From a virus (Duplodnaviria; Caudoviricetes), in the IMG/VR virus record IMGVR_UViG_3300031994_000010, positions 64,001-128,000 of that record: DNA of 64,000 nt. One strand, given 5' to 3'. The first letter of the stretch is position 1; the number at the start of each line of letters is the position of its first letter. The notes under the pieces are model-generated. The model saw only the letters and a program-made list of their open reading frames with translations. It did no database searches and had not been told where the DNA came from. Of the stretch, positions 3,810 to 60,783 are shown piece by piece. The position numbers were made by a program, and so were the translations under genes.

Positions 3810-3859
3810 AAAAAATAAGGGCTAGCCAAGGAGATTAACTCCCTGACTAGCCCTTTTAT
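3810..3859. terminator. Bidirectional intrinsic terminator between convergent late and early blocks
   Basis: A-tract, stem aagggctag...ctagccctt, T-tract. Confidence 0.8.
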
Positions 3860-4735: not shown

Positions 4736-5115
4736 TACTCAAAATATTTATTAATTACTTTACCGTCTCTATAAACCTCATAAATATATCCATCTACCCA
4801 GTCCGCATACTCATCATCTGTGATGTCATCCCTATCTTCGAATTTGGGATCAAATTCGCCTGTAGTTATATTTTTCCAAGTATAACTAGCTTCCTTTGTC
4901 CCTTCCCAATATTTCCAACCAAGATCGTCTGCATCCATAGAACCACATTCAAATGCTCCATCAAATTCTGCATAAACAATTGATAGATGATCATAATATG
5001 GATCTTTTTTAAGATAGGTTTTAATTGCTTCTAAACTATCTGCTATTACACATGGAAAAGAAGTGGTGCCATAATCAGTATCAGTACTCACCAAAAGTGC
5101 CCAAATTTTAGTCAT
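4735..5115 (-). CDS. Hypothetical acidic protein
   Basis: ORF coupled to neighbours. Confidence 0.6.
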   Translation of the reverse strand: MTKIWALLVSTDTDYGTTSFPCVIADSLEAIKTYLKKDPYYDHLSIVYAEFDGAFECGSMDADDLGWKYWEGTKEASYTWKNITTGEFDPKFEDRDDITDDEYADWVDGYIYEVYRDGKVINKYFE

Positions 5116-5632
5116 AATATTTTTTAATTAAATCGATTACTATAGGAGAAACATAGTTACCTATATTCTCTCTACTTTTAACTTTCTCTCTTATAAGTGA
5201 AGATGATATAGAATTTTCTGGTCTATCTACTATTAAGAAGTTATAATCTTCTATTATTTTTCCACCATGCATCCAATTTGGAATATCTTTAATAGTATCT
5301 TCTCCACATAAAACAAATACTTCATCATTACAATATTTATTCTTTAAAGCGTGGAGAGTAGCATAACTATAATAAGGAGGAATGAGAAATTTTTCTATAT
5401 TATCAATTCCTATTTTAATCCATTGTTTAGGAAAAAATTCTTCTTGAAGCTGTGCTCTAATTATATAAATTCTTTTATTAAAATCAAGAACTTTCTCCTT
5501 TTTCCAAGGATTTTGCATTGTTGGAACAATAATCACTCTATCCATTTTAAAGTCATTTAAAGCAGTTTTCACCACCTCTAAATGGCCCTTATGAAATGGA
5601 TTAAATGAACCTAAATATAATGCAATTTTCAT
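5108..5632 (-). CDS. nadD: Nicotinate-nucleotide adenylyltransferase
   Basis: GSFNPFHKGH (HxGH) and ISSSLIR motifs. Confidence 0.9.
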   Translation of the reverse strand: MKIALYLGSFNPFHKGHLEVVKTALNDFKMDRVIIVPTMQNPWKKEKVLDFNKRIYIIRAQLQEEFFPKQWIKIGIDNIEKFLIPPYYSYATLHALKNKYCNDEVFVLCGEDTIKDIPNWMHGGKIIEDYNFLIVDRPENSISSSLIREKVKSRENIGNYVSPIVIDLIKKYYD

Positions 5633-5767
5633 TTAAAAAAGATTTACTGGAAAACCTATAGAAGCAAGTTTTACCTTTTCTTCTAATTTTTTAATTTTTT
5701 CATCTTGTTCTTTTTGATGTTTCTCCAATTCTTCAATCCTTTTAAGAATTAATTGTTCCATAAGTCA

Positions 5768-5947
5768 TCAGGAATTTAAAAAAATTTTATTTTCACAATC
5801 TGGACAAATTATACATTGACGAATTTCATCGTCTCCTAATAATGAAGGAACAATTTCTTCTTGAATATCCTCTTGTTCATATTGTAATTTAGCCATACAA
5901 TTAGGACAAGTAACTTTCTTTACTCCATGTTTTAATACTTTAATCAT
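5768..5947 (-). CDS. Small Zn-ribbon protein (59 aa)
   Basis: CPNC...CPDC; ATGA overlap with nadE stop. Confidence 0.6.
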   Translation of the reverse strand: MIKVLKHGVKKVTCPNCMAKLQYEQEDIQEEIVPSLLGDDEIRQCIICPDCENKIFLNS

Positions 5948-6798
5948 AATCCTAATTCCTCTCTAGTTGGTTTAATTGGTAACTCTTTTCTTTTATAAAC
6001 AGTATTCTGGTGAAGTAACATTACTTTATCAACTCCTTGTTCGTTATAAGAATCAATAAGTCGAGTATATGCATCTCTAGCTTCTTTAGAACCAATAGCA
6101 TAAGAAGTGTAATATACTGTTTTTAACACATCATCAACTTGCTCATAGTTATCTAATCCAAACTGTTCACAATCTGAATTAGAAACACCATTACCATCTG
6201 TTGGAATTAACTTTATAGAAGCCAACAATGCTTGATATTTGTCAGATTGATTCTGTTCTTCTAATAAAAATTTAGCCAATTCGTATATTTCAGTCTTCCA
6301 AAGATAGTGTAAACCTAAGTTTATATCACAGGGACTATCACCGTGTATAGTATAAAAACCTAAATTCCACTCAGTGAAGTTATCATTATCAAGAACTACT
6401 CCTTTATGAAGTGATGCAAGATTATAAAGATACATCATTCTAAGACGAGCTTTAATATTTCCAGCTTGAATGTTATTTATAACACCCTCACACTCTTCAA
6501 ACTCATCTACAATAGAAAGATAAGTTTCATCTAAATATACAACTTTATAATTAGTACAAAAAGCCTTTCCTACTAAATCCGCAACATCACATTCAGACTG
6601 TTTATTAGTTCCTGTCGGTAAACTTCTACCTATTAAAGGAATATTAAGTTCTTTACATACCGGAGAAGCAATAGCACAGCTGACTGTGCTATCAATTCCT
6701 CCAGAAATGCCGACACAAATTGACTGTAAATGATTATTTCTTATATATTTGGATAACCATTTACGAGAATTTTCTACAAATATATTATAATTGATCAT
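5944..6798 (-). CDS. nadE: NH3-dependent NAD+ synthetase
   Basis: GISGGIDS PP-loop, GNIKARLRM, GFYTIHGD, KTEIYELA; no glutaminase domain. Confidence 0.92.
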   Translation of the reverse strand: MINYNIFVENSRKWLSKYIRNNHLQSICVGISGGIDSTVSCAIASPVCKELNIPLIGRSLPTGTNKQSECDVADLVGKAFCTNYKVVYLDETYLSIVDEFEECEGVINNIQAGNIKARLRMMYLYNLASLHKGVVLDNDNFTEWNLGFYTIHGDSPCDINLGLHYLWKTEIYELAKFLLEEQNQSDKYQALLASIKLIPTDGNGVSNSDCEQFGLDNYEQVDDVLKTVYYTSYAIGSKEARDAYTRLIDSYNEQGVDKVMLLHQNTVYKRKELPIKPTREELGL

Positions 6799-6988
6799 CG
6801 TGAGTTGTAGTACTTGTTACTTTCCAATTATTTGGATTATAAGTAAACTTATCTGAGTAAATAATCTGTGGATAATAAGGATAAATATATGGCTGACATC
6901 CTTTAATATCTTTTAATAACTGAAGACTCTCCTCAAGAGTTAAATGTCCAGTTTTATAAGCATTTAAAATAATTTCTTCACTAGTCAT
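6785..6988 (-). CDS. Small hypothetical protein
   Basis: ORF overlapping both neighbours. Confidence 0.5.
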   Translation of the reverse strand: MTSEEIILNAYKTGHLTLEESLQLLKDIKGCQPYIYPYYPQIIYSDKFTYNPNNWKVTSTTTHDDQL

Positions 6989-7553
6989 AATTTTCTATTC
7001 TTCTAAAAATTTCATTTTCCGGGGAGTCGAAGTTTTCTACCCAAGTTCTAAAAAATACTTTACAATCTAAATCGGCATTAGCATAATCAAGAATTTCTAA
7101 TAAATTATTATCAATGCTATAATTACAATCATCAAATTTATCTATAAAAGCATAGAGTCTATTGCTAGATAAATATTTAATGTCTTCTTGCCAACCTCCC
7201 CAGTAAAGTTCTTCTATAGCTTTCCAATCCTTTTTTGATTTCGGACTAAAGGTTATTCCATCAATATTGGGTAATTTTTCAAGTTTTCTAAGATATAATA
7301 AACAAGCATATCCAGAAGTAAACACATAAATATTTTTAATATTTTCTCTACTTCTTAGAGCATTTACTATTTTATCAAGTTTTTCTCCAAGTAAAAATGG
7401 ATCTCCTCCAGTTAAACAAATTGTATTTACAGAAGAAAGCTCCTCCTCCGTAGGAAGAGGAACTTTTTCTATATCATAATTCTTATTACAACAAAGTGGA
7501 CAGTTATTTGTACACTTATTAGTAACAAATAGATGCATTGTATCTACTTTCAT
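6981..7553 (-). CDS. Radical SAM protein
   Basis: CTNNCPLC (CxxxCxxC) and LTGGDP; ends TAG immediately followed by TGA. Confidence 0.85.
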   Translation of the reverse strand: MKVDTMHLFVTNKCTNNCPLCCNKNYDIEKVPLPTEEELSSVNTICLTGGDPFLLGEKLDKIVNALRSRENIKNIYVFTSGYACLLYLRKLEKLPNIDGITFSPKSKKDWKAIEELYWGGWQEDIKYLSSNRLYAFIDKFDDCNYSIDNNLLEILDYANADLDCKVFFRTWVENFDSPENEIFRRIENYD

Positions 7554-8713
7554 ATCCCTAATTGATATTTAGCAATCTCAAATTCTTTATCATCACCTAA
7601 ATGTTTTCCTAAATCATCAGAAATTTTAATACACTTTCTCCATTCCTGATTTTGGTTTATTTTACATTTAGATAGCTTCATAACAATATTAGAAGGTTTA
7701 AACCCACAGTCATTAGTAAGATTTGTACCAATGCCGGCGCTGACCCGAATCCTGCCTTTGAAGTAATTGGCAATATCAAGATACTTATTAAAATCAAGAG
7801 CATTGCTAAATACGATAGTTTTTGTCGTTGGGTCAATACCCAACTCTTGATACCGTTTAATAACCTCATTACCAATTTTATATTCATCACCAGAATCCTG
7901 TCTTACACCATCAAATAATTTTGCAAATTTTAAAGACATATTCTTAAGACCAACTTTAGAAGTATAAGTATCCATTAAGAATATTCCTAAATTTCCATCA
8001 TAAGTACGAACCCAATCTCTCATTCCGAGATAATTAGCTTCCTGATAACCCCAAATAGCCCCATGAAACATAATCCATTCATGCGGGAAGGTTCCAATAG
8101 GAGTCATATTATAGTGCATAGCAAAATATACATTAGAAGTACCAACACAATTAATTGGGCATCTATTATGTAACCGCTTTATTATACTCTCATGTACTGC
8201 TGATGAAAATCTTCTACGGGTTCCAAACTCAGAGAATTTTAATCCATTTTCTATTGCAATATTTATCTTTTTATCTAATTTAGAAAGCATTATTTGTTCA
8301 CTATAAACATTTCCTTTCCATTTATTAGTAAGTTCAGATACTATTGAAAGAATTGGAACTTCATATAAGGTTACCTTATAAAGAAAGTCAGTAACTTCGA
8401 TATGTAGATGACCATTATTGTCAATAGTAGCATATATTTTTAATGGCTCATACCTAAAATTTTCCAACCATTCCCAATAAACCTGAGGAATATAAGGAAT
8501 ATGTTCTACACACCAATAAAATTCATCAACTTTTAAATGTAATTGCATAAGTTTGTTTAACTCAAGATTTAAAGCAGTTAAAAACTCTTCGCTATAAACA
8601 GTATTATCTCTATCAGTAAAAGTAAAAGTTCCTACTGCTTCTGGATAGAGTTTCATATAAGCATATGATGTACTAAACTTATACAAATCGTTGTCTAAAA
8701 TTGAAAGTATCAT
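7550..8713 (-). CDS. pncB: Nicotinate phosphoribosyltransferase
   Basis: DNDLYK, EFGTRRR, GTFPHEW, RQDSGD, GIGT motifs. Confidence 0.93.
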   Translation of the reverse strand: MILSILDNDLYKFSTSYAYMKLYPEAVGTFTFTDRDNTVYSEEFLTALNLELNKLMQLHLKVDEFYWCVEHIPYIPQVYWEWLENFRYEPLKIYATIDNNGHLHIEVTDFLYKVTLYEVPILSIVSELTNKWKGNVYSEQIMLSKLDKKINIAIENGLKFSEFGTRRRFSSAVHESIIKRLHNRCPINCVGTSNVYFAMHYNMTPIGTFPHEWIMFHGAIWGYQEANYLGMRDWVRTYDGNLGIFLMDTYTSKVGLKNMSLKFAKLFDGVRQDSGDEYKIGNEVIKRYQELGIDPTTKTIVFSNALDFNKYLDIANYFKGRIRVSAGIGTNLTNDCGFKPSNIVMKLSKCKINQNQEWRKCIKISDDLGKHLGDDKEFEIAKYQLGI

Positions 8714-9219
8714 TTTAAATAATTATTAATAAGTTCTTTATGATTAAATGCCCATTCGTAAGAATTTATTTCCTTAGTAGATATCCATTTTATTTTAGAA
8801 ACTTCATCTAATTCAGAGTTTTCAAATGAAAGTACAATGTCCTCAATCCCTCTAATATAACTACAAAGTCTAAATGTAATATTTTGTCGTTTATCTGAAT
8901 TAGGATTAGAATTAACTGAAATTAAATCCCAATCATTTGGGTTAATCTCTACTCCAGTTTCTTCATACACCTCCCTAGTGGCTGCTTCTTCAATAGTTTC
9001 GTCGAAGTCTACATAACCACAGGGTAAACACCATTTATTAACAAACTCTGGATCTGGAGTTCCTTTACCTCGCTGTTCTACTAAAATGTATTCATTATTA
9101 TCTTTATCATATCCGAATACAAAAGTTACAACAGCAACAGAACGGGAAATCCAATATTCCCGTCCTGTTCTATTATCAATTATTGAAAAATTTTTCATAT
9201 TTTGGAATATCGTTATCAA
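8710..9219 (-). CDS. Nudix hydrolase (ADP-ribose pyrophosphatase-like)
   Basis: Nudix box GYVDFDETIEEAATREVYEETGV. Confidence 0.88.
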   Translation of the reverse strand: MITIFQNMKNFSIIDNRTGREYWISRSVAVVTFVFGYDKDNNEYILVEQRGKGTPDPEFVNKWCLPCGYVDFDETIEEAATREVYEETGVEINPNDWDLISVNSNPNSDKRQNITFRLCSYIRGIEDIVLSFENSELDEVSKIKWISTKEINSYEWAFNHKELINNYLK

Positions 9220-9781
9220 TCATATATTTTCTTAAAGTACTTCCGCCATCTATAGATGCTGTTCCATCTACATAAACGGATAAATTATGCAATTTATGCC
9301 TTACCTTAACAAGTTGTTTTAAGGTTTCAAGAACACAAATGTCTCCAGCTAATCCACATACAACTACATCTTCTCTATTAGATAGAATATAACCTACATC
9401 ATCATTAGAGATGTTTAAAGAAACACAATCATAAAATTCTTCTTTTATACCATTAAATACAGCAAATTCTTCAACATAACGCTGAGTTCCTTTAACTATA
9501 TATTCTGCATATAGATTGTTTTTAGTAATTGCATCGCTAATTGGACTATAAATTCTAGCGCCATTAGTACTTGCAACACAATGTTCAGGAAATTGTCCAC
9601 CAAAGTCTTTAAAAGAACAATGATTTCCAGGATGCCAGTCTTGTGAAACTAAACAATTACCAACTTCTCCTGAATTAATGAGTTTTGCTATGTTATCAAG
9701 AGCTTTTGTACCCCCATTAACTGGAAGTTTACCTCCCTCAATAAAATCATATTGAGGATCTACAATAATTAATGTAATCAT
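9176..9781 (-). CDS. pncA: Nicotinamidase
   Basis: IVDPQYDF, QDWHP..H, PEHC, KG, GLAGDICV (Asp-Lys-Cys triad). Confidence 0.9.
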   Translation of the reverse strand: MITLIIVDPQYDFIEGGKLPVNGGTKALDNIAKLINSGEVGNCLVSQDWHPGNHCSFKDFGGQFPEHCVASTNGARIYSPISDAITKNNLYAEYIVKGTQRYVEEFAVFNGIKEEFYDCVSLNISNDDVGYILSNREDVVVCGLAGDICVLETLKQLVKVRHKLHNLSVYVDGTASIDGGSTLRKYMIDNDIPKYEKFFNN

Positions 9782-10470
9782 ACTTCTAAATATAAAGGTT
9801 CAAATACTTTATTATATTGCTCATTTAATAATGACACACAAGCAGTCTGTGTCCCTGTATAATCTATCAGATTATGGTCACAAGTGTGAAGATGTCCAAA
9901 GAAATGGTATTTAGGATGTTTACTTTTTAATACTTCAGCTAATTCTGGATTACCAATATGAGAACCATCTGCCCACCACACTGATTCATCAAGAACTACA
10001 TCACTTCTACCATAAGCAGCATCATGAGTAATTAGAAAATCTAAATTATCCGGAATCTTCTCGAATTGTGTAAGTTCATACTCTGGGCTTTCCATAAATG
10101 CCCAATTTCCAAATATATGACAAAGTGGAGAGCCCCATATTGTATATATTTTACCAGATTCTTCATCTAAATATTCAGCACCTTCATTATAAAGAATAGT
10201 AATTCTAGTTCCAAGTAGAGCTTCTTTGACTTCTTTTTCTAATTTTTCCAAAATAAAATCGTGATTCCCTCCAACCATATATATTTGGTCAGCAGACTGA
10301 GACTGACACCAAGGTATAAAGAATTTCTTAAACCAACTAAATGACTGAGGAATATTTCTTTGCATACGAAGTGGAACAATATCTCCACATATAAATAAAA
10401 TATCCACAGGCTCTATGGATAAATTTTCAAATTGCCCATGGATATCACTCATTGCACAAATTTTAATCAT
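9778..10470 (-). CDS. Calcineurin-like metallophosphoesterase
   Basis: SDIHG, GD, GNHD, GHLH. Confidence 0.88.
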
Positions 10471-10705
10471 AATCTACAGTATATTTAGGTAAATTTGTAA
10501 TATAACAACATTTTTTATATTTTTTACCACTACCGCAAGGACAAAGGTCATTCATTCCTATTTTAGGAGATATTCTTCTCCAAGGAGTAGTAGCTGCTTT
10601 TATAGCATGCTGTCCTTCTGGACTATCTATATATTTGTGAAGAGCTTCAGCTTGTTCTTGTTGAATTTCTTCTTCACTCTTTAAAGGGATTTTTGATATT
10701 TGCAT
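10463..10705 (-). CDS. SEC-C motif protein
   Basis: [20 protein letters not shown]. Confidence 0.85.
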
Positions 10706-11276
10706 AATCGATTCTCTTTAATATATCATTCCAACTAATTGGAGTGTAATGATTATTATCTACTCCTACATCATATTGATTTAACATTCCATATTGCATA
10801 AATCTATCAATATCTGGTCCTGAACTAAAGGGACCAGAATGAATATGTCCAAATAACTGGATAGATTTATCAGTTTTATATGTACCACTAAAACAAAGGA
10901 AAGGAAAATGATTTAAAAATACAGTAATATCATCTATATTAAGAGTAAGTTGTTGACAAGTATAGTCGAACAACTTATCACAGATAGATTGTTGAAGTTT
11001 TCTATCATGATTTCCTTTTATAAGAATGATATGACCATTTAATTGGGATACATATTTAATTAAATTAGTATTCCCTCCAAAAATTACATCTCCTAAATGA
11101 AATACTGTATCATCCTTTCCAACTACTGAGTTCCAGTTATCAATAAGTCCTTGATTCATTTCTTCTACTGAAGAAAATGGTCTTTTACAGTATTTAAGGA
11201 TGTTTTTATGGTCAAAATGCGAATCAGATGTGAAGAAAAGATGCTCAGCTTCTTCTTTAGTGTACTTTACTTTCAT
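10674..11276 (-). CDS. Metallophosphoesterase
   Basis: SDSHF, LGD, GNHD, GHIH, DVGVD. Confidence 0.88.
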
Positions 11277-11584: not shown

Positions 11585-12526
11585 TTAGTTAGCCACTTCC
11601 ACATTTTCCGTACATAATTCATTCCAAATTCCATATTTATCAGCTTCTTTTGCCATTAAACCTGTTAATTCTACCATATTAGGATGCGGAGCACCTGTTT
11701 TTCCAAAGTATCTCAAATCGAAGAAATGCCTCCAGTCTGACGCATATGCTGTATGAATTATTTCAGTAGCAGTACATAAAGGAAGAACTTCTCTTGCTTG
11801 TTGAGGCTGCCATCCCTTACTTATAAGATTCATATAATGATGTTCTGCAACATCTAAGGAATCTAACCATACGTTTAATTCTTCGGCCTGCTCTTTTGTA
11901 AAATAATCACCTGGTCTAACAGAAATCATAACTTCAAAATTTGGATCATTTTCTGGTTGTATTCTATAGTTTATTCCATCATACCAATAGGCATCACCTT
12001 CAGGTATGTTTAACCAACTAGGAATACAGAAAGTTACTTCTTTACCAAACTTATCCTTACTATAATTACAGTATCTAGTCGATTGCTCTGCGATACTATT
12101 TACGCGATGACGATTAAGTTCTCTAGTAACTCCAATAGATGTAACCACTCTAAAAGTATATCTCCTTTTGTGATATTCAGTTGGTTCACAGATATATTTT
12201 AAGTCTTTATCCCAATTATGTTCTTTGATAACACGTAAATTTGTAGTAATATATCTAAATCTTCTTATTTTAGAATACGGATTTAATAAATATTTGAAGA
12301 ATTTAAGTATATGCCACCATTTAATTATTAAATATACAGTACCATGCTCAAGCATAGCAAGATGATTTGACTTAATCATTCTATCAACAAATGGTTTAGC
12401 ACTATCTTCTGTTATTTTATCCGTAGATTTGTAGCAAGTCCTGCCTGCTAGCTCAATTTGTTTATAAACTCCTTCTAAGCCAGGCTGCTGTAGAAGGAGT
12501 TCTGCTTTTGGTTTAATTAGTTTCAT
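11585..12526 (-). CDS. thyX: FAD-dependent thymidylate synthase
   Basis: HLAMLEH, RELNRHR..S..EQSTRY, AREVLP, HFFDLR. Confidence 0.92.
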   Translation of the reverse strand: MKLIKPKAELLLQQPGLEGVYKQIELAGRTCYKSTDKITEDSAKPFVDRMIKSNHLAMLEHGTVYLIIKWWHILKFFKYLLNPYSKIRRFRYITTNLRVIKEHNWDKDLKYICEPTEYHKRRYTFRVVTSIGVTRELNRHRVNSIAEQSTRYCNYSKDKFGKEVTFCIPSWLNIPEGDAYWYDGINYRIQPENDPNFEVMISVRPGDYFTKEQAEELNVWLDSLDVAEHHYMNLISKGWQPQQAREVLPLCTATEIIHTAYASDWRHFFDLRYFGKTGAPHPNMVELTGLMAKEADKYGIWNELCTENVEVAN

Positions 12527-27845: not shown

Positions 27846-28073
27846 TTATTCTTCTTTTGAAGATTTTTTACTATCTTTGAGGACATCAATACAAGTAGCT
27901 ATTATAATTAATATTATTAATAATACAAATACTACAAGTGGAATCCATAAAGGTGATAAAACCCACCACCAAGACCAATCTATATAGTGGGTAAGTTTTA
28001 ATCCAATAAATAACACCGTTAATAAAGATAAAAATACTCCATCTATATTAACCCTACTAATTTCATAACTCAT
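27846..28073 (-). CDS. Small membrane protein (DWSWWWVLSPLW family)
   Basis: Two TM segments. Confidence 0.6.
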   Translation of the reverse strand: MSYEISRVNIDGVFLSLLTVLFIGLKLTHYIDWSWWWVLSPLWIPLVVFVLLIILIIIATCIDVLKDSKKSSKEE

Positions 28074-28558
28074 TTTTTTCTAAATTTATAAGTTATATCA
28101 AGCCATCCACTTACTAACCTATGAGAAGTTTCTTCTATAAACATATCCTTACTATAAAGTTTTTGGTTACTATTAGGATTATCCAATCCTCCTTTTTCTT
28201 CAACATAAGGACCTATTTTAATATAGTCAAATGCTTCTAAATCATGATGGGGAAATACTGATTGCCCAGAATACCATCCTACTTTTAAATTAGGATATTT
28301 AGCTTTAACTAATTCTGCTAAAACTACTATAGTATCTGGTTCAGCATCTCCTCCCATAAAACATATACAAGAAACTCCAGGATTGCTGTCTATTAATTTA
28401 CTTAACTCTTCAAAAGTTAATTCTGTACCAATGTCTTGCCATAATTCTTTAGAATGACATCCGGGACAATGTATTGGACAATTAGATAAATTTATAGCTA
28501 AAGTAATTTCATCTGGAATTTCTCGAAAAACTACTTCTGCATTAGTGTATTTAATCAT
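28070..28558 (-). CDS. nrdG: Anaerobic ribonucleotide reductase activase
   Basis: EIPDEITL, CPIHCPGCHS, K.GPY; downstream of nrdD. Confidence 0.92.
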   Translation of the reverse strand: MIKYTNAEVVFREIPDEITLAINLSNCPIHCPGCHSKELWQDIGTELTFEELSKLIDSNPGVSCICFMGGDAEPDTIVVLAELVKAKYPNLKVGWYSGQSVFPHHDLEAFDYIKIGPYVEEKGGLDNPNSNQKLYSKDMFIEETSHRLVSGWLDITYKFRKK

Positions 28559-52346: not shown

Positions 52347-52420
52347 GGGAGTTTGATAGGGTTCGAACCTATGTATACCAGAACCACAATCTGGCGCCTA
52401 ACCACTCGGCCACAAGCTCC
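52347..52420 (-). tRNA. tRNA-His(GTG)
   Basis: CCAGA-TT-GTG-GT-TCTGG arm, GTTCGAA T-loop. Confidence 0.88.
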
Positions 52421-52589
52421 ATATCAAAATTTTGATTCATCAGACCTGCTGAAAAGGTAAAAGGACGGGCTAATTCAGCCCGGCCTTATATATAATATAC
52501 TACTTAATATACTACTCTCTACCATTAAATAGGGTGTGTAGTAACGTAGTTATTTTATATATAATAACAACAACTGCCTCAGTAACAGT

Positions 52590-52692
52590 AAATTTAATAG
52601 AAATTTCGACATAAAACAAATAAAATTTCTATCAGTAAACTATCTGACTGTTATCGAACACAATTTTATAAATTTTTTTCGAGACTACCAAA
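52590..52692 (-). promoter_or_regulatory. Two tandem sigmaA-type promoters
   Basis: TTTG-N20-TAAAATTG (52692-52661) and TTTG-N20-TAAATTTA (about 52620-52589). Confidence 0.5.
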
Positions 52693-52881
52693 TTAAAAAA
52701 TTTTGAAGCTAATTGGTCAATTTTTTCAAAAATACAAAAAGAGAGTTTAATCCAGGTAGTTTGTTAGCCCTATCCCTTCATAAACTCTCTCCCATGTCCT
52801 TTTAGTAAAAGAACTAAAAACCCGCAGATTTTCATGTTGTAAATCCACGGCAAAAAGTCACTAACAATTTAATAAAAATAA

Positions 52882-53091
52882 TTAATTGGTGCAAATAACA
52901 GACACCACCTTTGTAGTTCCGTTTACTGCACCAATCATTCTATCATCAGCTTTATATTGCCATTCTACGTCTCGAATCCCAAAATGGCCCAAAGCATTAA
53001 CAACTTCCTGTCCCTTTTGAACAGGTTCTTCTATTCCACCACACTGATATACACCAGTACTAGTGTCAACAATTTGTACAAATACTTTCAT
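52882..53091 (-). CDS. Small hypothetical protein
   Basis: ORF track. Confidence 0.55.
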   Translation of the reverse strand: MKVFVQIVDTSTGVYQCGGIEEPVQKGQEVVNALGHFGIRDVEWQYKADDRMIGAVNGTTKVVSVICTN

Positions 53092-53179
53092 AACTATTCG
53101 TAATAGTACTCATATTTAGATACTATGTTATATCTAATGAGTAATTTAATAAAAAAGAATTTAATTTTATACATAATAG

Positions 53180-53251
53180 AGCTTCATACCGGGCTCGAAC
53201 CGATATCTTTACATTACAAGTGTAATATTCTACCAATTAAACTAATGAAGC
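53180..53251 (-). tRNA. tRNA-Thr(TGT)
   Basis: TTACA-CT-TGT-AA-TGTAA. Confidence 0.88.
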
Positions 53252-53261
53252 AATTTTTAAG

Positions 53262-53334
53262 TGGGACAGGGTGGTTACGCTCCACCTCCTCTGGATTTTC
53301 AGTCCAGCGCTTCTACTAAGTTAGCTTCTCTCCC
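53262..53334 (-). tRNA. tRNA-Phe(GAA)
   Basis: CTGGA-CT-GAA-AA-TCCAG; atypical T-loop. Confidence 0.85.
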
Positions 53335-53415
53335 TAAAATGAAGTACCCATGCTTCAAACAAACTACCCTAGAAATAGTTCTAACACAAATACTCCATAA
53401 CCTTGCCAGGTTGGG

Positions 53416-53487
53416 CTGGAATGGAGAATTACGATATCTCGACCGACGGCTTAACGGGCCGTTGCTCTGCCTCTGAGCTACATTCCA
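53416..53487 (-). tRNA. tRNA-Asn(GTT)
   Basis: ACGGC-CC-GTT-AA-GCCGT; atypical T-loop. Confidence 0.82.
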
Positions 53488-53723
53488 ATAATTACATTCC
53501 ACTATCCTGTTACAAGGAGCGTCTTTACCTCTCACTCTTTAATTATCGACTTGCCTACAGTAACTTCTCCAACTTTTTAAAGGTTGGCGTTTCCTTCCTT
53601 ATATTCGTTTAATAATCTATTTTTTAATTGCCATTTATCTCTTAAATCAGAATCCCAATCAAACCATTCTGTCCATTGGATTCCATCTTTTGTCCAAAAT
53701 TGATAACGTTTCTGTACCATAAG

Positions 53724-54325
53724 TACCCCAAGCAGGACTCGAACCTGCGACCCATTGCTTAGCTTACCACACTATGTTACCATAGCCAAACAATTAAAGG
53801 AACTTTCGTGGAATTTGTATATTTATACTATATGTTCCTCTCACTTCATACATATTACTATGCACCTTCTTCGAGTTGTTTGTTGTAGTCTGGAATACAT
53901 TATTACCCTATCGAAATTCTTGCAAGTAATAACTTTTCCGTTAAAACGAGCTTTATCTGCCCTAGGAATCATTATAATTTCAACTTAGGTATCTCCTCTA
54001 TATTCTCTACACATTTATGATACTTACATATTGATTTTTACACGATAACTCCGAGTTAATTCTCAATTAAGTATGCACATAGGTTTGCAAGCTATCCACA
54101 TACGTTATAGTCAATAAAATATCAATAGTTTTCTCAATTTAGCACGGTATTATCCTTACACATTATTGGTTAGTGTTCTGTCCCTACGGTGCTGCTATAA
54201 CAGATTTCGTGTTGCAGGGTTGAGGAAAGGACTTCCACCGTTTTAGGGAGATTCTAACAAGGACTTTCGTGCCTTGTCACTCCTTTTTTTAAGGCAATTG
54301 CTCTAATCCACTGAGCTATTGGGGC
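53724..54325 (-). tRNA. tRNA-Arg(TCT), split by group I intron (exons 54325-54291 and 53762-53724)
   Basis: Joined exons give GCCCCAA..AGTGGATTA..ATTGC-CT-T^CT-AA-GCAAT..GGTTCGAGTCC..TTGGGGTA. Confidence 0.88.
53763..54290 (-). mobile_element. Group I intron (528 nt, no ORF)
   Basis: 5' exon ends in U, intron ends in G; P AAAACGGTGGAAGTCC, Q AATACCGTGCTAA, R GTAGAGAATATA, S AATGTATTCC; P3 GAATCTCC/GGAGATAC. Confidence 0.85.
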
Positions 54326-54334
54326 ATAAGATTA

Positions 54335-54496
54335 TCAATCCCATTCTTCTTCTATAGGTTTAGAATACTTAGGACGGTTGCTACAATGACATTTATTGTT
54401 TTGTGGATCTGATGAAACTATCATTATCTTTTTATCAGAATCTATCTTAATTACTACTGTTTCAGGCTTTACATACTTCTTTTTCTTCTTTTCCAT
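54335..54496 (-). CDS. 53-aa peptide with YxKP leader-like motif
   Basis: MEKKKKKYVKPETVVIKI...EEEWD. Confidence 0.55.
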   Translation of the reverse strand: MEKKKKKYVKPETVVIKIDSDKKIMIVSSDPQNNKCHCSNRPKYSKPIEEEWD

Positions 54497-54519
54497 ATCG
54501 TTTAGTTTTAAAGATTAAG

Positions 54520-54594
54520 TGGACCCCCTCAGGCATGATCTGAGACTCTCGCAGCTTATGAGGCTGGTGTTTTAACCAATTAAACTAGAGGTCC
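54520..54594 (-). tRNA. tRNA-Met/Ile2(CAT)
   Basis: CAGC-CT-CAT-AA-GCTG; atypical T-loop. Confidence 0.8.
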
Positions 54595-54619
54595 TTATAG
54601 GAAGCAATTACGCTTCCAA

Positions 54620-55189
54620 TTATTGTTCGTCTGGAAATGCAGGATCTGAACTTCTTGCTTCTCCAGTCTTAGTGTCTATCCAAATTTGTTCTTCAACATT
54701 ACCAAACACCCATTGAGCGTTACAATCCAGTGGTCCTATAGGCAATCTCAAACAAACATGGCGAGAATGTGGTTTAGGAAGATTAACTTGAGATATTAAT
54801 TCACAAGCTTTGGTATAAGAGATTTTTAAGTCATTATAATTCAAAGGATGATCCTCAATCCAAAAACCGTGAATAGAATCTGTAGTAACAGTTCCATCAG
54901 AGAAATGTTGAGTTTTATAAACATAAACATCACCATCATTAACAACTTGATAGATATTTACAAGTTCAGCAACTTTCATGTCTGAGTCGGAATCAAGATA
55001 ATCTTCTAACAGAATAAGACTCTCATACCAACGGAAATCTTTATCTCCATATTTAGCAGTCATAGAATCTAAATCTGCTTTAATTGTCTTATCCACTGTG
55101 GTGGTAACTTGTGGAACAGGCTCTACTTTTTTATGCTGACAAGCAGCTAGCATAAGAATTAGCGAAAATAAAAATAGAAATTTCTTCAT
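54620..55189 (-). CDS. Lipoprotein
   Basis: MKKFLFLFSLILMLAAC lipobox. Confidence 0.75.
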   Translation of the reverse strand: MKKFLFLFSLILMLAACQHKKVEPVPQVTTTVDKTIKADLDSMTAKYGDKDFRWYESLILLEDYLDSDSDMKVAELVNIYQVVNDGDVYVYKTQHFSDGTVTTDSIHGFWIEDHPLNYNDLKISYTKACELISQVNLPKPHSRHVCLRLPIGPLDCNAQWVFGNVEEQIWIDTKTGEARSSDPAFPDEQ

Positions 55190-55211
55190 TTTGATTAGTT
55201 TAAAGTTAATA

Positions 55212-55472
55212 AAGTATCACCTCTCCACAGCTGACTTTGGTAAAATCCAAGGCTGGAGAGGTGATATAGTTAAGAGTAAGAAATAACGATGTAGTCAAAG
55301 ACTATGACTAAAGCAAAGACCAGTCCATTCATCAAAGACGAAGGCCTATAAATTTTAAGCGAATGGACTGCCGGGGGTTAATAACCATGCTTTAAGATTT
55401 ATATAATGTTATTCCTTATTCTTATAAAGTTGAAGAATATTGTTACCTATGTAATCTCAGTCTTCAACACCT
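55212..55472 (-). ncRNA. Candidate structured RNA 3' of coiled-coil gene
   Basis: Stems GTTGAAGA/TCTTCAAC, CAGTCCATTC/GAATGGACTG, TAGTCA/TGACTA, TATCACCTCTCCA/TGGAGAGGTGATA; three GTCTTTG repeats. Confidence 0.5.
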
Positions 55473-55476
55473 AAAA

Positions 55477-56355
55477 TTAATTATTGTTACCTAAAGAGTT
55501 TAGGTGTTCGTACAGAGGTTGGAATTTTTCAGGAATCACAATCTTTAATGCAGAAATCCGCTGATTTTCTTGAGTTTTATATATTTTAAATTGTGTTGTG
55601 ATATTATCAAGTTCTGTAGTGTACTTATTAAAAGCATCCTCATAAGCTTGTTGTAACTGAATATTTCTTTTATTAACCTCTTCCTTAAGTTTAAATTTAA
55701 TTGAATTTAGTTGCTTTTCATACTCCCTATGGAGTTTTTGCAAATCAGTAAATACCTTTTCAACCTCGCTAGGTTGAACTGAACACGTAGAAGTATAGAT
55801 AATTAAATCCCTCCCACTGCCAACAACTTGAGTTGGATTAGCCAAATCCTCATACATCTTCTTTCTAGAACTAGATAGATTAGATGTAGACTGAGGATGA
55901 ATAACCTGTCCTATTGTAGAAGCCAATGCTTCTAGTCTCAAATAGTTTTGACGTTCTTTTATATTAAGGAAACCCAATACATCCTCTTCAGTAATTTCTT
56001 CAGGTCGAACAGGTCTTTTCGGATAAGTAATGCCTTTAAGCTCACAAAACTCATCAATGGACAAATTACTGTTTTTGACGAGAAGAGCCTCTTTATCAGC
56101 AATAGCTTCTCTTAACCATGCACAGAACGCATTTAATTCTCCTATACGAATTACAGATTCACGTATAAAGTCCAGATTAGATAATCCAACTTTAAAACGT
56201 TTCTTTTCCCCATTAATAAGTTCTACATCTACATTAGTTAATTGTAGATTCTTAAGCTTTTGGGTATCAGCTTCCCGTTGTTCCTTAGCTAAGTTTGCTA
56301 GGAAATTGGCCGAAGTACTAGTTATTCCTTGGCCATCAGTTAAAAATACACTCAT
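55477..56355 (-). CDS. Long coiled-coil protein
   Basis: 292 aa, heptad-rich; GITSTSANFLANLAKE N-terminus. Confidence 0.75.
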   Translation of the reverse strand: MSVFLTDGQGITSTSANFLANLAKEQREADTQKLKNLQLTNVDVELINGEKKRFKVGLSNLDFIRESVIRIGELNAFCAWLREAIADKEALLVKNSNLSIDEFCELKGITYPKRPVRPEEITEEDVLGFLNIKERQNYLRLEALASTIGQVIHPQSTSNLSSSRKKMYEDLANPTQVVGSGRDLIIYTSTCSVQPSEVEKVFTDLQKLHREYEKQLNSIKFKLKEEVNKRNIQLQQAYEDAFNKYTTELDNITTQFKIYKTQENQRISALKIVIPEKFQPLYEHLNSLGNNN

Positions 56356-56825
56356 AAAATTAAATTAATTAACACTATATTCTAATAAAAAAGCTGTTAT
56401 CATAAACCAACTACTAAGAATGGTTAAGATAATAATTATACTAACTAATATCTTTTTTAACATAATAGCGAGCTTTTATTGTATCTAACAGAGAATCTTT
56501 ACTAATTTGAAAACGTCTACAAATATCAGCTAAAGAACATTCTATGTTCTTATAAAGATCTTCGTTCATATGGAATAAACATATTATCTTTACTACTGCA
56601 AGTAAAACGTTTTACCAACTTGTCTGTTTTAGGGTAGTTACGCACATATCGTGCGCACTTTTCACGCTTAACACATGAATGATTGTTACATAAAGTGTTC
56701 ATCTTAAAATAATACTAGCTAAAATACTTACTAATAGAAAATACGTAGCAATAAACCAGGGGACAAGTGCTTTTACAACACTTTTTACAATTTCTTTTTG
56801 CATAATTAATTAATTTTTAAGTTAG

Positions 56826-56898
56826 TCGAGGTGACCCGACTCGGACGGGCGACCACAGCATCCCAAATGCCGCATTCTACCAACTGAACTACACCTCG
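56826..56898 (-). tRNA. tRNA-Pro(TGG)
   Basis: CGGCA-TT-TGG-GA-TGCTG. Confidence 0.88.
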
Positions 56899-56903
56899 TG
56901 TTG

Positions 56904-56975
56904 AGCGTTGTAAGAGATTCGAACTCTCTCCTTGGCCTTGGAAGGGCTATATGCTACCATTAACACCAACAACGC
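56904..56975 (-). tRNA. tRNA-Gly(TCC)
   Basis: AGCC-CT-TCC-AA-GGC; U discriminator. Confidence 0.87.
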
Positions 56976-57076
56976 AAAAAATACTGGCTTCGAGCGGTTT
57001 TATCTCTACTTTATATTACTCACATATTCCTAAAAGGCCCAGTTATTGTAATATCCCGGTATCAAGCTTCAGTATT

Positions 57077-57150
57077 TGGTTCGGGGACCTAGAATCGAAC
57101 TAGGAGCAATAGCTTATGAGACTATTATGTTACCCTTACACTATCCCCGT
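57077..57150 (-). tRNA. tRNA-Met(CAT), unpaired 1-72, encoded CCA
   Basis: ATAGT-CT-CAT-AA-GCTAT. Confidence 0.83.
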
Positions 57151-57151
57151 G

Positions 57152-57223
57152 TCACGCCGCCCAGAATCGAACTGGGATTCCAACATAGAAAGTGTTGTGT
57201 CCTAACCATTAGACGACGGCGCG
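57152..57223 (-). tRNA. tRNA-Glu(TTC)
   Basis: Glu-type D arm GTCTAATGGTTAGGAC; CAACA-CT-TTC-TA-TGTTG. Confidence 0.85.
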
Positions 57224-57369
57224 GTAAAAGATGGTCACTCTGTAATAACCATCTTTCTTTTTCAATTAGTTTTCTTCAGGATTGTCAGGAAAACTAATAA
57301 AAGACTTCTACTCACTTCCACCAGTAGAAGGTGGGCATATCGCTGACCTAGATATGCTAAGGACAGAAG

Positions 57370-57442
57370 TGGAGCTATCGAGACTCGAACTCGAAAAAAT
57401 AGCTTGCAAAGCTACTATGATATCCAATTTCATCATAACCCC
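57370..57442 (-). tRNA. tRNA-Ala(TGC)
   Basis: G3:U70; TAGC-TT-TGC-AA-GCTA. Confidence 0.88.
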
Positions 57443-57704
57443 AGTTTGCTAGGACTTCCTCTACCTAGCTTTGCAGATTTATATTAATAATATGACTTGC
57501 TTCAGTTTCTCTTTTCTTAGATACTCAAGGTACCACACAAGTCTTTTTACTAGAAATGTTTTAGAACTTCGGCTGCGGAAACTAACAGGAGTTCTTGCGG
57601 CTAGCGATATTAATAAAGGTTTACCTATACTAAAGCAATAGGTTGCTTCTGTGCCTATTCACAGCTCACAGGTTCTGCTTAACCTTACCCGAAAAGGATT
57701 ATAG

Positions 57705-57775
57705 ACAGCCATACTGGAGTCGAACCAGTTTAAGTGATTTTGCAGACCACTACATAGCCGTTCTGACAATGGCTG
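57705..57775 (-). tRNA. tRNA-Cys(GCA)
   Basis: GTGGT-CT-GCA-AA-ATCAC. Confidence 0.85.
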
Positions 57776-57777
57776 TG

Positions 57778-57849
57778 TACGCCTACTAGGTGCCGCCCCT
57801 AGGACCCCAATCTTAAAAGGATTGTGCTCTACTGCTGAGCTATAGGCGT
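57778..57849 (-). tRNA. tRNA-Lys(TTT)
   Basis: CAATC-CT-TTT-AA-GATTG; T-loop GGCGGCA. Confidence 0.83.
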
Positions 57850-57858
57850 GAAAGATGT

Positions 57859-58866
57859 TTAATGAACATCTATAATAACAATTCTCTGAGATTCATCAGA
57901 GACAGCTCCATATCCTCTTAAAGAGTTAACTTTAACTCCACGCATTCTAAGATACATAGCTGTGTTAATAGCACGTCTTTCAGATAAGTCATTATTGAAC
58001 TCTGGACTTCCTTCTGGAGAAGCAAATCCATAAACATCAACATTGACCTCTGACGGAATGTTGTTTAGAATATTCTTAGCATCATTAGTAAGAACATCGC
58101 TTCCCTTAGCAAATGTTATAACATAAGGATTTATAATAGGAGTATTAACATACTCAGTAATAACTCTAGCAGGTTTGTTTGCTTCTGCTCTAAGTTTATT
58201 AATCCTATCATTATAATCGCCTATATTATGCATTATAAAGTTCTTATGACTAACTCCAAAGTGATAAACATAAGAGATGTTTATACCAAGATATGCATGT
58301 GTCCTATTAAAATGAACTGCATCTCCTTTATTAGTAAGATTCCAATAAACTGCTGGACTTATAACAAATGAATGTGTTCTATCCCAAGAGTTAAATTGAA
58401 AATCTAAACCAGTCTTAGAAGTTAGTTCATCATTATCACCATGTCCTATTCCCCAGATATGAGCCCAACCAATACCAGTATTAGTTTTTAATTCAAAAGG
58501 TCTAACGTCATATCCACAAATAGCATTAGTTAAATTAATAGTACCACTAACAGTAGTATTGATACCTTTAAAAGCGGTCTTACTTCCAAGAGTATTAATA
58601 TAGCCATCGTGATGTCCACTAATATGGTCATTTAATGATACTATACTTTCTATTTCAACACCATAAACAGGAGTAATTTCTTTACCCGCCTTTAAACCAA
58701 CTACCTCATTAACAGGAAACATTTGATTGAAACTAAGTGGAGTATTAACACCACCAGTAATTCCAATGTACATATTGTCAAAGAACTTTGTATTCTCAGT
58801 TGCTACCTGAGCTGACAGGGACAATGTTAGCAACATTCCACATAAAAAACAAAGAAGTTTTTTCAT
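57859..58866 (-). CDS. OmpA-family outer-membrane protein
   Basis: Signal peptide, beta-barrel-like N-half, C-terminal GFASPEG...N..LSERRA peptidoglycan-binding motif. Confidence 0.85.
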   Translation of the reverse strand: MKKLLCFLCGMLLTLSLSAQVATENTKFFDNMYIGITGGVNTPLSFNQMFPVNEVVGLKAGKEITPVYGVEIESIVSLNDHISGHHDGYINTLGSKTAFKGINTTVSGTINLTNAICGYDVRPFELKTNTGIGWAHIWGIGHGDNDELTSKTGLDFQFNSWDRTHSFVISPAVYWNLTNKGDAVHFNRTHAYLGINISYVYHFGVSHKNFIMHNIGDYNDRINKLRAEANKPARVITEYVNTPIINPYVITFAKGSDVLTNDAKNILNNIPSEVNVDVYGFASPEGSPEFNNDLSERRAINTAMYLRMRGVKVNSLRGYGAVSDESQRIVIIDVH

Positions 58867-58889
58867 TTTAAGATTTTTTAAATTTAACA

Positions 58890-59117
58890 TTATTTTCGCA
58901 TAAATTTCTTATCTAATTTATTGTTCCAATCGGCCAATCCATCGGAACTAAAACTCCAAGTGTTAGAACACTCCTTTAATCTGTGCAAGGGTTCTTTACC
59001 TATCTTAATAAATATTCGAGAGAGCCTACGAAACAATCTATTAGCTAACCTTTTATCCTTTTTATTGGATTTACAGGTCCATGTAATACATGGGTGCTTT
59101 TTGTAACTTCTACTCAT
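58890..59117 (-). CDS. Small basic hypothetical protein (MSRSYKKHP...)
   Basis: Start moved to ATG 59117 because upstream part of ORF overlaps tRNA-Gln. Confidence 0.65.
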   Translation of the reverse strand: MSRSYKKHPCITWTCKSNKKDKRLANRLFRRLSRIFIKIGKEPLHRLKECSNTWSFSSDGLADWNNKLDKKFMRK

Positions 59118-59132
59118 AATATTAAGGGTTAG

Positions 59133-59205
59133 TTGGGATGGGCAGAGTCGGACTGCCATTACCAGAGTCAAAGTCTGGTGTAATAAACCGTTATACCACA
59201 TCCCA
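59133..59205 (-). tRNA. tRNA-Gln(TTG)
   Basis: U1-A72; CCAGA-CT-TTG-AC-TCTGG. Confidence 0.87.
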
Positions 59206-59318
59206 AAATGCCACTTTTTGTAAGGAAAGTAGCTAAACCTAGTTCTGTTCTTTAACTCCCGAACTAAGGAGCACAATATTAATAACTAAAAATCAAACAT
59301 CCAAATTTTTAACAGAAA

Positions 59319-60700: not shown

Positions 60701-60783
60701 TGCACCTAGTGAGACTCGAACTCACACTCCCGAAGGAACTAGCTCCTAAGGCTAGCGCGTGCTACCAATTTCGCCATAGGTGC
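60701..60783 (-). tRNA. tRNA-Leu(TAG)
   Basis: Long variable arm; CTAGC-CT-TAG-GA-GCTAG. Confidence 0.9.

Follow-up and report, generated by a model that had tools for sequence, protein, structure and literature searches.

Organisation of the locus

The window analysed (64,000 nucleotides, positions 64,001 to 128,000 of IMG/VR record IMGVR_UViG_3300031994_000010) is part of the 174,440 bp genome, 96% complete, of an uncultured phage whose host is a gut or rumen Bacteroidales. Profile searches and a motif check placed five genes of NAD metabolism (PncA, Nudix, PncB, NadE and NadD) on the minus strand within positions 5108-9781, confirming the genes and diagnostic motifs that a first-pass annotation had reported there (Table 1). 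Neighbouring genes of the cluster mostly overlap, by 4-44 nt, the sole gap being one of 135 nt before NadD. The earlier description of a co-oriented, tightly coupled set holds for the strand and the overlaps, but three ORFs are interleaved among the five genes, encoding a radical-SAM-like protein of 190 aa, a zinc ribbon of 59 aa and a product of 67 aa, and a conserved phosphodiesterase adjoins them. The tight packing extends upstream to 11276 and downstream to a terminator at 3855-3817, indicating that it characterises the entire leftward block and goes beyond the five-gene set. The cluster occupies the far end of a replication and nucleotide-metabolism block, with ThyX (11585-12526), NrdD/NrdG, ligases and DNA polymerase as neighbours, and its products are therefore probably made early to mid infection. 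The remark that no prs was visible applies to the whole 174-kb genome (no Pribosyltran_N match and no homologue of the Prs-like protein of the related locus L042). NAD-dependent ligase, Macro and ARH genes were not found in the phage genome either, and it gave no PF04973 (PnuC) match.

Table 1 Features of the NAD cluster and its surroundings (positions in the window).
Feature	Coordinates	Strand	Length	Evidence
Intrinsic-terminator-like hairpin, strong	3817..3855	-		17-bp stem followed by a T run; closes the leftward block containing the cluster
NadD-like nicotinate/nicotinamide mononucleotide adenylyltransferase (putative)	5108..5632	-	174 aa	TIGR00482, 100.4 bits, slightly under the cut-off of 112.45
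Zinc-ribbon protein (CxxC...CxxC)	5768..5947	-	59 aa	phrog_2834; virus-only Atlas clusters
NadE amidotransferase, single-domain ammonia type	5944..6798	-	284 aa	TIGR00552, 107 bits (cut-off 63.65)
67-aa ORF	6785..6988	-	67 aa	No family match
Radical-SAM-like small protein	6981..7553	-	190 aa	CTNNCPLC (CxxxCxxC); Pfam Radical_SAM and Fer4_12 matches under cut-offs; phrog_31524
PncB nicotinate phosphoribosyltransferase	7550..8713	-	387 aa	TIGR01514, 383 bits (cut-off 269.55)
Nudix hydrolase	8710..9219	-	169 aa	Perfect Nudix box, G68-V90
PncA-type nicotinamidase	9176..9781	-	201 aa	Pfam Isochorismatase, 37 bits; motifs; solved-structure matches
MPPED2-like metallophosphoesterase (MPE1)	9778..10470	-	230 aa	Pfam Metallophos; stop overlaps the PncA start

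Identity of the salvage enzymes

The active site of PncA is intact (triad D8/K97/C149, metal site D48/H50/H67), its residues being kept in 57-59 of 62 unique phage homologues, and the best solved matches are the nicotinamidases 1ilw, 3r2j and 3pl1; the NCBIfam PncA profile gave 49 bits against an equivalog cut-off of 174, indicating a divergent member of the family. PncB, which also matches NF003704 (413 bits, cut-off 379), belongs to the NAPRTase subfamily (TIGR01514) and not to Nampt; its H211, within GTFPHEW, is invariant in the 68 unique viral and window sequences, and its nearest cellular relatives are from Bacteroidales (51-68% identity). NadE carries the PP-loop SGGIDS (S32-S37), kept in 59-60 of 60 homologues, and its 284 residues hold no glutaminase domain, as the first-pass annotation had proposed, and no other second domain. 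The adenylyltransferase has both the HxGH motif (H14-K-G-H17), invariant in 56 homologues, and the SxxxxR motif (ISSSLIR), matches NadD families and not NadR, and has B. subtilis NadD (1kam) as its best solved match; preference for NaMN over NMN is unreadable from the sequence, and the NadD assignment is putative. The catalytic residues, whose degeneration would have undermined the first annotation, are essentially invariant among the 46-68 unique phage homologues of each enzyme, and these intact, conserved active sites uphold the predicted complete route nicotinamide -> nicotinate -> NaMN -> NaAD -> NAD+.

The Nudix protein probably starts at the ATG at 9198, where its relatives begin. Its Nudix box and P106, 16 residues past the box, are invariant in 45-46 of 46 homologues. 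A Foldseek search with the AlphaFold model (pLDDT 88) returned 3gz8 (the NrtR Nudix domain with ADPR), 2fml and AraR as top matches, followed by NudC and 2qjt; by sequence and fold together, 2fml, NadM-Nudix and the ADPR-bound Nudix domain of NrtR come closest. Membership of the ADP-ribose-binding (NrtR / NadM-Nudix) branch is supported by sequence and modelled fold, with a substrate that is predicted only. The part of the earlier claim that places the protein with ADPR binders accordingly stands, while the splitting of ADPR stays a prediction of specificity, with NudC-type enzymes close behind. Nudix substrates are not reliably readable from sequence, and the enzymes close behind in the fold search are NAD(H) pyrophosphatases. 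The phage protein has no DNA-binding (winged-helix) domain, which together with the perfect catalytic box argues for an enzyme and not a repressor.

Two alternative assignments bear on the chemistry of the route. The Nudix protein might be an NAD(H)/NaAD pyrophosphatase or a NudC-like NAD-cap RNA decapping enzyme, regulating the pathway or acting on RNA, and the NudC structures of M. abscessus and E. coli and NUDT12 do come close behind by fold (E about 1e-8, TM 0.56-0.64). We consider this unlikely, since ADPR-binding NrtR domains lead the matches by both sequence and fold, the invariant proline lies 16 residues past the box, presumably the ADPRase signature, and cleavage of NAD+ would be self-defeating within a cluster that builds it. 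NudC carries extra N-terminal and zinc-binding domains, for which 169 aa are too short. The last two steps could be swapped, NadE acting as an NMN synthetase (NaMN -> NMN) ahead of adenylation of NMN to NAD+, as in Francisella tularensis, an order to which we give a still smaller chance. In its favour, the solved structure that the phage NadE matches best is 3fiu (80 bits, E 2e-21), which we take to be the F. tularensis NadE. The F. tularensis homologue is reported to act as an NMN synthetase and to have no more than marginal activity as an NAD synthetase (PMC3376133). However, 3p52, 2e18 and 1xng, which score slightly lower, are deposited as NH3-dependent NAD synthetases, and the Francisella partner is NadM, whereas the phage enzyme best fits NadD families. 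Judged from its sequence, NadE could be an NAD synthetase or, alternatively, an NMN synthetase.

Interleaved and adjoining genes

The radical-SAM-like protein belongs to a virus-dominated family in Atlas, and its homologues lie inside the cluster in two related loci (L042/L044) and several kb upstream in five others (L008, L011, L076, L077, L080); by gene position it is an insertion and no fixed part of the NAD set. No homologue of the 67-aa ORF was detected among the related loci. The clade to which the window belongs (L003-L006 and L016) keeps the zinc ribbon at this site, flanked by NadE and NadD (57-79% identity). In 52 of the 80 best related loci the adjoining phosphodiesterase, MPE1, immediately precedes PncA on its upstream side, and none of its eight metal and catalytic residues varies among 40 homologues. 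Its AlphaFold model (pLDDT 91.5) matched MPPED2 (3rl4) best in Foldseek (TM 0.77, E 1e-13), the next matches being far weaker. MPE1 is a possible sixth component of the cluster.

Conservation and origin of the cluster

In the co-occurrence survey that the first-pass annotation had suggested, the five genes lay together in a stretch of about 6 kb at 62 of the 80 best related IMG/VR loci, a frequency that is not due to chance. Five gene orders exist among the related viral loci, the Nudix gene shifting position yet remaining in the cluster. The 80 nearest bacterial pncB loci include 72 with pncB alone and 7 with an adjoining pncA, and the full five-gene set occurs in none of the 80, indicating that the clustering arose in phages; as the nearest Bacteroidales pncB loci have no such operon, the host lineage did not pass the cluster on as a unit. 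Some relatives have an ADP-ribosylglycohydrolase gene (PF03747, E 4e-37) inserted between PncA and PncB, and at that position L042/L044 carry a gene that is Prs-like (TIGR01251, 68.6 bits). These insertions, as annotated from their profiles, fit an ADPR/PRPP theme.

Comparison with described systems

Li et al. 2024 (Microbiome, PMC11662467) described clusters of pncB, nadD and nadE in gut Bacteroidota phages that they call "NAD-jumbo phages", Kuafu_71 and Kuafu_19 among them, and put forward the hypothesis that NAD+ made by the phage may offset defences that deplete it. The route, presented by the first-pass annotation as a candidate new form of NAD reconstitution, is thus not newly recognised, since clusters of this kind and the counter-defence idea itself had both appeared in print in 2024. 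The present cluster resembles those of the NAD-jumbo phages in the physical clustering of pncB, nadD and nadE, the link to Bacteroidota and the origin from gut/rumen metagenomes. It differs in the size of its genome (174,440 bp, below the 200-kb jumbo threshold), in including PncA and an ADPR-type Nudix ("Nudix" is absent from that paper) and in the conserved MPPED2-like phosphodiesterase adjoining it, which sets it apart from the NAD-jumbo clusters by their description.

The supply of PRPP from ADPR through ribose-5-phosphate, part of the inference in the first-pass annotation, had been proposed for bacteria in 2008 (PMC2330246). The phage cluster is similar to the bacterial NrtR-regulated salvage operons of that study (PMC2330246) in having an ADPR-binding Nudix-fold protein beside pncA, pncB, nadD and nadE, and unlike them in that its Nudix combines the absence of a winged helix with a perfect catalytic box. 

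Among the phage pathways that rebuild NAD+, NARP1 (Adps + Namat) pyrophosphorylates ADPR and joins nicotinamide to it directly, whereas the genome carrying the cluster has no Prs/Adps-like gene and its phosphoribosyltransferase is PncB. Vibrio phage KVP40 has an Nmnat that carries a fused Nudix domain. NARP2 (Nampt + Nmnat, KVP40; Osterman et al. 2024) overcomes Thoeris and DSR, and its authors mention a comparable PRPP cost (bioRxiv 10.1101/2024.02.11.579819). NARP2 and the cluster are alike in that the phage encodes salvage enzymes of the classical type, with nicotinamide and PRPP of the host as starting materials; NARP2 takes two amidated steps via NMN, whereas the cluster would take four via deamidated NaMN/NaAD with PncA, PncB and NadE. 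NARP3 (PnuC + NadR-like; Sci Adv 2026, PMC13464706), to which the place of third NARP proposed by the first-pass annotation already belongs, is alike in rebuilding NAD+ but imports nicotinamide riboside, whereas the phage genome is without PnuC and its adenylyltransferase is NadD-like. A literature search on the gene set of the cluster found no experiment on NAD+ restoration or phage rescue.

Proposed role of the cluster

From these data we infer the enzymatic activities, the Nudix substrate, the timing and a counter-defence role, and favour with moderate confidence a phage-borne, phage-assembled NAD+ salvage module whose main benefit would be to resist NAD+ depletion, including that caused by SIR2/TIR-type abortive-infection defences. 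PncA would deamidate nicotinamide to nicotinate, PncB would join nicotinate to PRPP from the host Prs to give NaMN, the NadD-like enzyme would adenylate NaMN to NaAD, and the ammonia-type NadE would amidate NaAD to NAD+. Free ADP-ribose would be split to AMP and ribose-5-phosphate, most likely by the Nudix protein, a step clearing ADPR and feeding ribose back to PRPP synthesis. The first-pass annotation went further in supposing, speculatively, that NadE might use ammonia released by PncA and that the deamidated intermediates might escape NADases. The module would sustain the NAD+ pool during phage replication in Bacteroidales, as a functional analogue of NARP2. In the Bacteroides order, 55 of the 201 genomes sampled encode proteins with a SIR2_2 domain, which makes selective pressure from NADases plausible. 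SIR2_2 is a family of known NADase defences. Service to the phage's own ligase is not the reason for the module, since the genome has no NAD-dependent ligase.

Several points weigh against the counter-defence reading. Bacteroidales hosts own PncB, so the phage route duplicates at least part of the host capacity and fills no gap, and host PRPP plus roughly four ATP per NAD+ is a costly price while the cell loses NAD+. Sirtuin-type enzymes are inhibited by their product nicotinamide, and its removal could lift that inhibition (yeast Pnc1/Sir2); by analogy, defence SIR2 NADases could be de-inhibited too, which would count against the module. The placement among ThyX, NrdD and ligase genes suits plain metabolic support equally well. 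The cluster could accordingly be a purely auxiliary metabolic set that has nothing to do with defence, making more NAD(P)+ from gut/rumen nicotinamide and niacin for host redox and nucleotide synthesis during a demanding infection, and we regard this as somewhat unlikely. Nicotinamide and niacin are abundant in gut and rumen, and ThyX needs NADPH. Its embedding among ThyX, NrdD/NrdG, ligase and DNA polymerase genes speaks for the metabolic set, as do the KVP40-type salvage genes, which raise NAD+ without any defence system (bioRxiv 10.1101/2024.02.11.579819), and the metabolic reading given beside the defence reading by Li et al. 2024 (PMC11662467). On the other hand, the PncB already present in the host argues against it as well, the NAD-dependent ligase, Macro and ARH genes are absent from the phage genome, and the recurrent ADPR-type Nudix, with the ADP-ribosylglycohydrolase of relatives, points to NAD+-cleavage products and not merely to vitamin uptake.

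A broader form of the favoured salvage module is tentative and, on balance, doubtful: a counter-defence module of at least six genes (the MPPED2-like phosphodiesterase, PncA, PncB, NadE, NadD and the ADPR-type Nudix, with the ADP-ribosylglycohydrolase or Prs-like gene in relatives) that would rebuild NAD+ from both NADase products via deamidated intermediates. If true, this would in effect be a fourth, chemically distinct NARP. In such a module the phosphodiesterase might serve to remove molecules of the ADPR type that are cyclic or phosphorylated.

Gene content and packing of the NAD cluster

The five genes named by the first-pass annotation (PncA, Nudix, PncB, NadE and NadD-like, all on the minus strand) were confirmed in both identity and position by family profiles and motifs. 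Three interleaved ORFs had been overlooked: a 190-aa radical-SAM-like protein, a 67-aa ORF and a 59-aa zinc ribbon. The operon is compact (about 5.4 kb), start and stop codons overlap all through the cluster, and the tight packing extends upstream across two metallophosphoesterase genes and downstream as far as a terminator-like hairpin, to the left of which lie plus-strand genes. The ORFs discussed here were identical under table 11 and with TAG read as glutamine. A sigma-70 promoter scan was uninformative, the number of sites being no higher than in shuffled sequence.

Features of the NAD cluster, its surroundings and related loci (window positions unless a locus prefix, L, is given; L loci are related loci from the PncB searches).
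Feature	Position	Strand	Remarks
PncA	9781-9176	-	Divergent isochorismatase fold; closest solved relatives nicotinamidases; D8/K97/C149 catalytic, D48/H50/H67 metal ligands
Nudix	9219-8710	-	Probable start 9198; perfect Nudix box
PncB	8713-7550	-	Exceeds trusted cut-offs of two NCBIfam PncB models
NadE	6798-5944	-	One PP-loop domain, SGGIDS; glutaminase domain absent
NadD-like	5632-5108	-	HKGH and ISSSLIR; top match B. subtilis NadD; TIGR00482 score slightly under cut-off
MPE1, MPPED2-like metallophosphoesterase	10470-9778	-	Stop overlaps PncA start; translationally coupled
SEC-C zinc motif protein, 80 aa	10463-10705	-	Upstream of cluster; kept in many relatives
Second metallophosphoesterase, phrog_547	10674-11276	-	Upstream of cluster; kept in many relatives
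Radical-SAM-like protein, ~190 aa	6981-7553	-	Virus-dominated family
Zinc ribbon, 59 aa, phrog_2834	5768-5947	-	CxxC...CxxC; 57-79% identity within the window's clade, where it separates NadE from NadD
Terminator-like hairpin	3817-3855	-	Very strong; 17-bp stem and T run; ends long leftward gene block
NrdG-like activase	28070-28558		Beside NrdD
tRNA genes (14)	52347-60783	-	Grouped; two are tRNA-Met
Radical-SAM-like gene	L042:9631-10218		Within NAD cluster
Radical-SAM-like gene	L008:2572-3165		Several kb upstream of cluster
ADP-ribosylglycohydrolase	L008:7207-8004		PF03747, E 4e-37; between PncA and PncB
Prs-like gene	L042:7102-7986		Divergent; between PncA and PncB
AAA-type ATPase	L058:10113-11216		Between NadE and NadD
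AAA-type ATPase	L072:9655-10785		Between PncB and NadE

The source IMG/VR record (174,440 bp, of which the window is bases 64001-128000) was judged 96% complete. The window has a G+C content of ~30%, holds nearly all its genes on the minus strand and encodes a DNA polymerase, RNA ligase and ATP-dependent DNA ligases, NrdD, a helicase, an exonuclease, ThyX and 14 tRNAs, a content of replication and nucleotide genes and tRNAs indicating a large lytic-type phage. A nucleotide search of deposited phages gave zero matches to the cluster region, and protein searches gave distant relatives only: human-faecal "Bacteriophage sp." records with the order PncA-PncB-NadE as here; the 735-kb phage LR756501; and Sinorhizobium phage Phosso, whose pncB adjoins nadE.

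Conservation of the gene set in related phages

Searching IMG/VR with PncB yielded 15 loci, and with an alignment 180 stretches, from which the best 80 loci were retained. In the co-occurrence survey proposed in the first-pass annotation, all five genes lie within ~6 kb in 62 of these best 80 loci. The gene order varied: PncA-PncB-NadE-NadD-Nudix in 52 loci; the same order with an ADP-ribosylglycohydrolase (ARH) between PncA and PncB in 4; the window's own PncA-Nudix-PncB-NadE-NadD in 3; NadE-PncA-PncB-Nudix-NadD in 2; and Nudix-PncA-PncB-NadE-NadD in 1. Some of the loci without the full set are truncated by contig ends, and several related contigs of 317-412 kb carry PncA and PncB only. Retention of the set despite this reshuffling is good evidence for a functional link among the five genes. 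Degeneracy of the catalytic residues would have counted against the proposed activities; in alignments of 46-68 unique homologues per enzyme these residues were essentially invariant.

Order of the final steps and role of the Nudix protein

The top solved match of the phage NadE was 3fiu, the Francisella NadE, followed by ordinary short NAD synthetases. In F. tularensis the NadE homologue reportedly acts as an NMN synthetase, not as an NAD synthetase (PMC3376133); were the phage enzyme of the same kind, as its best match would suggest, the last two steps would run in the other order. However, the next matches are ordinary NAD synthetases and the adenylyltransferase partner in the phage is NadD-like, not NadM-like, and for these reasons the classical order (NadD-like, then NadE) is considered the more likely.

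By sequence, the closest solved relatives of the Nudix protein were 2fml (presumably an NrtR-family protein), Shewanella NrtR entries and the Francisella NadM-Nudix. The top fold match of its predicted model (pLDDT 88) was 3gz8, the NrtR Nudix domain with ADP-ribose (ADPR) bound (E 1e-10), with NudC-type NAD(H) pyrophosphatases and the NadM-Nudix ADPRase close behind. NrtR is a bacterial ADPR-sensing repressor of NAD genes, whereas the phage protein lacks the DNA-binding domain; because its catalytic box is intact and this domain is missing, it is predicted, with somewhat better than even confidence, to be an ADPR pyrophosphatase. Operons of the nrtR-pncA-pncB-nadD-nadE type are known from Clostridium and Pseudomonas, and the supply of ribose-5-phosphate for PRPP synthesis by Nudix cleavage of ADPR has already been proposed for bacteria (PMC2330246). 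The lack of a prs gene, reported earlier for the window, held over the whole 174-kb genome, in which searches for Prs, NAD-dependent ligase, Macro, ARH and PnuC found nothing and the Prs-like, ARH and SLOG-like genes carried by relatives had no homologues.

Neighbouring and accessory genes

In 52 of the best 80 related phage loci the MPE1 gene directly precedes PncA, and the metal ligands of MPE1 are all invariant. Its predicted model (pLDDT 91.5) matched mammalian MPPED2 best (TM 0.77, E 1e-13), the matches to other solved metallophosphoesterases being far poorer. MPPED2 is a weak cyclic-nucleotide phosphodiesterase, and MPE1 might act on cyclic nucleotides or ADPR-derived molecules.

The radical-SAM-like gene is within the NAD cluster in the window and in L042 and L044; in other relatives it lies several kb upstream, near ThyX and DNA polymerase. 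It was rejected as a core pathway member because of this variable position, and as a copy of the NrdG-like activase, with which only the cluster-binding motif aligns. ARH occupies the same position inside the cluster in one clade of related phages (L008, L011, L014, L076, L077). L042, from a 169-kb related phage, and L044 carry instead a Prs-like (ribose-phosphate diphosphokinase-like) gene (TIGR01251, 68.6 bits in L042, under the cut-off), which could encode either a PRPP synthetase or, as in NARP1, an enzyme of the Adps type. Clusters of some human-gut relatives include AAA-type ATPase genes (367-376 aa), and many loci have a 152-179-aa ORF without family match between NadD and Nudix.

Relation to known NAD+ reconstitution pathways and defence

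The earlier description of the phage pathways NARP1 (Adps and Namat) and NARP2 (Nampt and Nmnat) agrees with the literature, but the cluster had also been put forward as a "third" route, a place already held by NARP3 (PnuC and a NadR-like enzyme), published in August 2026 (PMC13464706). Novelty was likewise overstated, since Li et al. 2024 (PMC11662467) had already described complete salvage or Preiss-Handler pathways in 174 gut jumbo phages, most of them phages of Bacteroidota, and had proposed that such NAD+ synthesis may counter NAD+-depleting defence; the idea recurs in a 2026 study of Xanthomonas phage X1. Our literature search turned up no published experiment on a deamidating route in phages, nor the name NARP4 in use for phages. 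The cluster is thus a well-supported annotation, from sequence, of a kind already described, and not a discovery. The proposed mechanism is chemically sound and the best available reading; its ammonia hand-over and NADase-escaping intermediates are conjectural.

Of 201 genomes sampled from the order containing Bacteroides finegoldii, 55 had proteins with a SIR2_2 domain, the family that includes ThsA, DSR and SIR2-HerA. Candidate NADase defences are thus frequent in the likely host order, which is context for a defence role and not proof of it. If the cluster protects against NAD+-depleting immunity, a four-step deamidated route would stand beside three demonstrated phage NAD+ reconstitution pathways, with abundant gut and rumen Bacteroidales phages as its users. 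What the cluster offers is an operon that is well defined and testable, together with three additional observations: the conserved MPPED2-like enzyme, the mobile Nudix gene and the accessory ARH and Prs-like genes of relatives. The survey yields concrete candidates for testing (the operon, the neighbouring phosphodiesterase and the natural ARH or Prs-like variants).

Origin and host

The nearest cellular PncB proteins were all from Bacteroidales: 67-68% identity to the phage PncB in rumen Alloprevotella MAGs, and 55-60% in Bacteroides, Phocaeicola, Parabacteroides and Prevotella. In a quick, unrooted FastTree tree the phage PncBs form at least six groups with Bacteroidales sequences interleaved, relationships that would fit Bacteroidales hosts and repeated exchange. 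Among the 80 nearest bacterial pncB neighbourhoods, pncB stands alone in 72, pncA adjoins it in 7 and the full five-gene set occurs in none; capture of the whole cluster from a host was rejected on this count, which points to a cluster built up in phages and not taken over from a host operon. As Bacteroidales carry pncB, the host has at least this enzyme, and the phage pathway would duplicate host capacity, not complement it.

Locus L159 (DFKH01000081.1, labelled as an Alphaproteobacteria MAG) carries PncA, PncB, MPE1 and NadD, and its PncB clusters with jumbo-phage sequences; it is probably a phage contig mis-binned into the MAG. The closest cellular-labelled PncBs, those of the Alloprevotella MAGs, are on contigs of 222 and 118 kb (L082 and L083), which might be phage-derived too.
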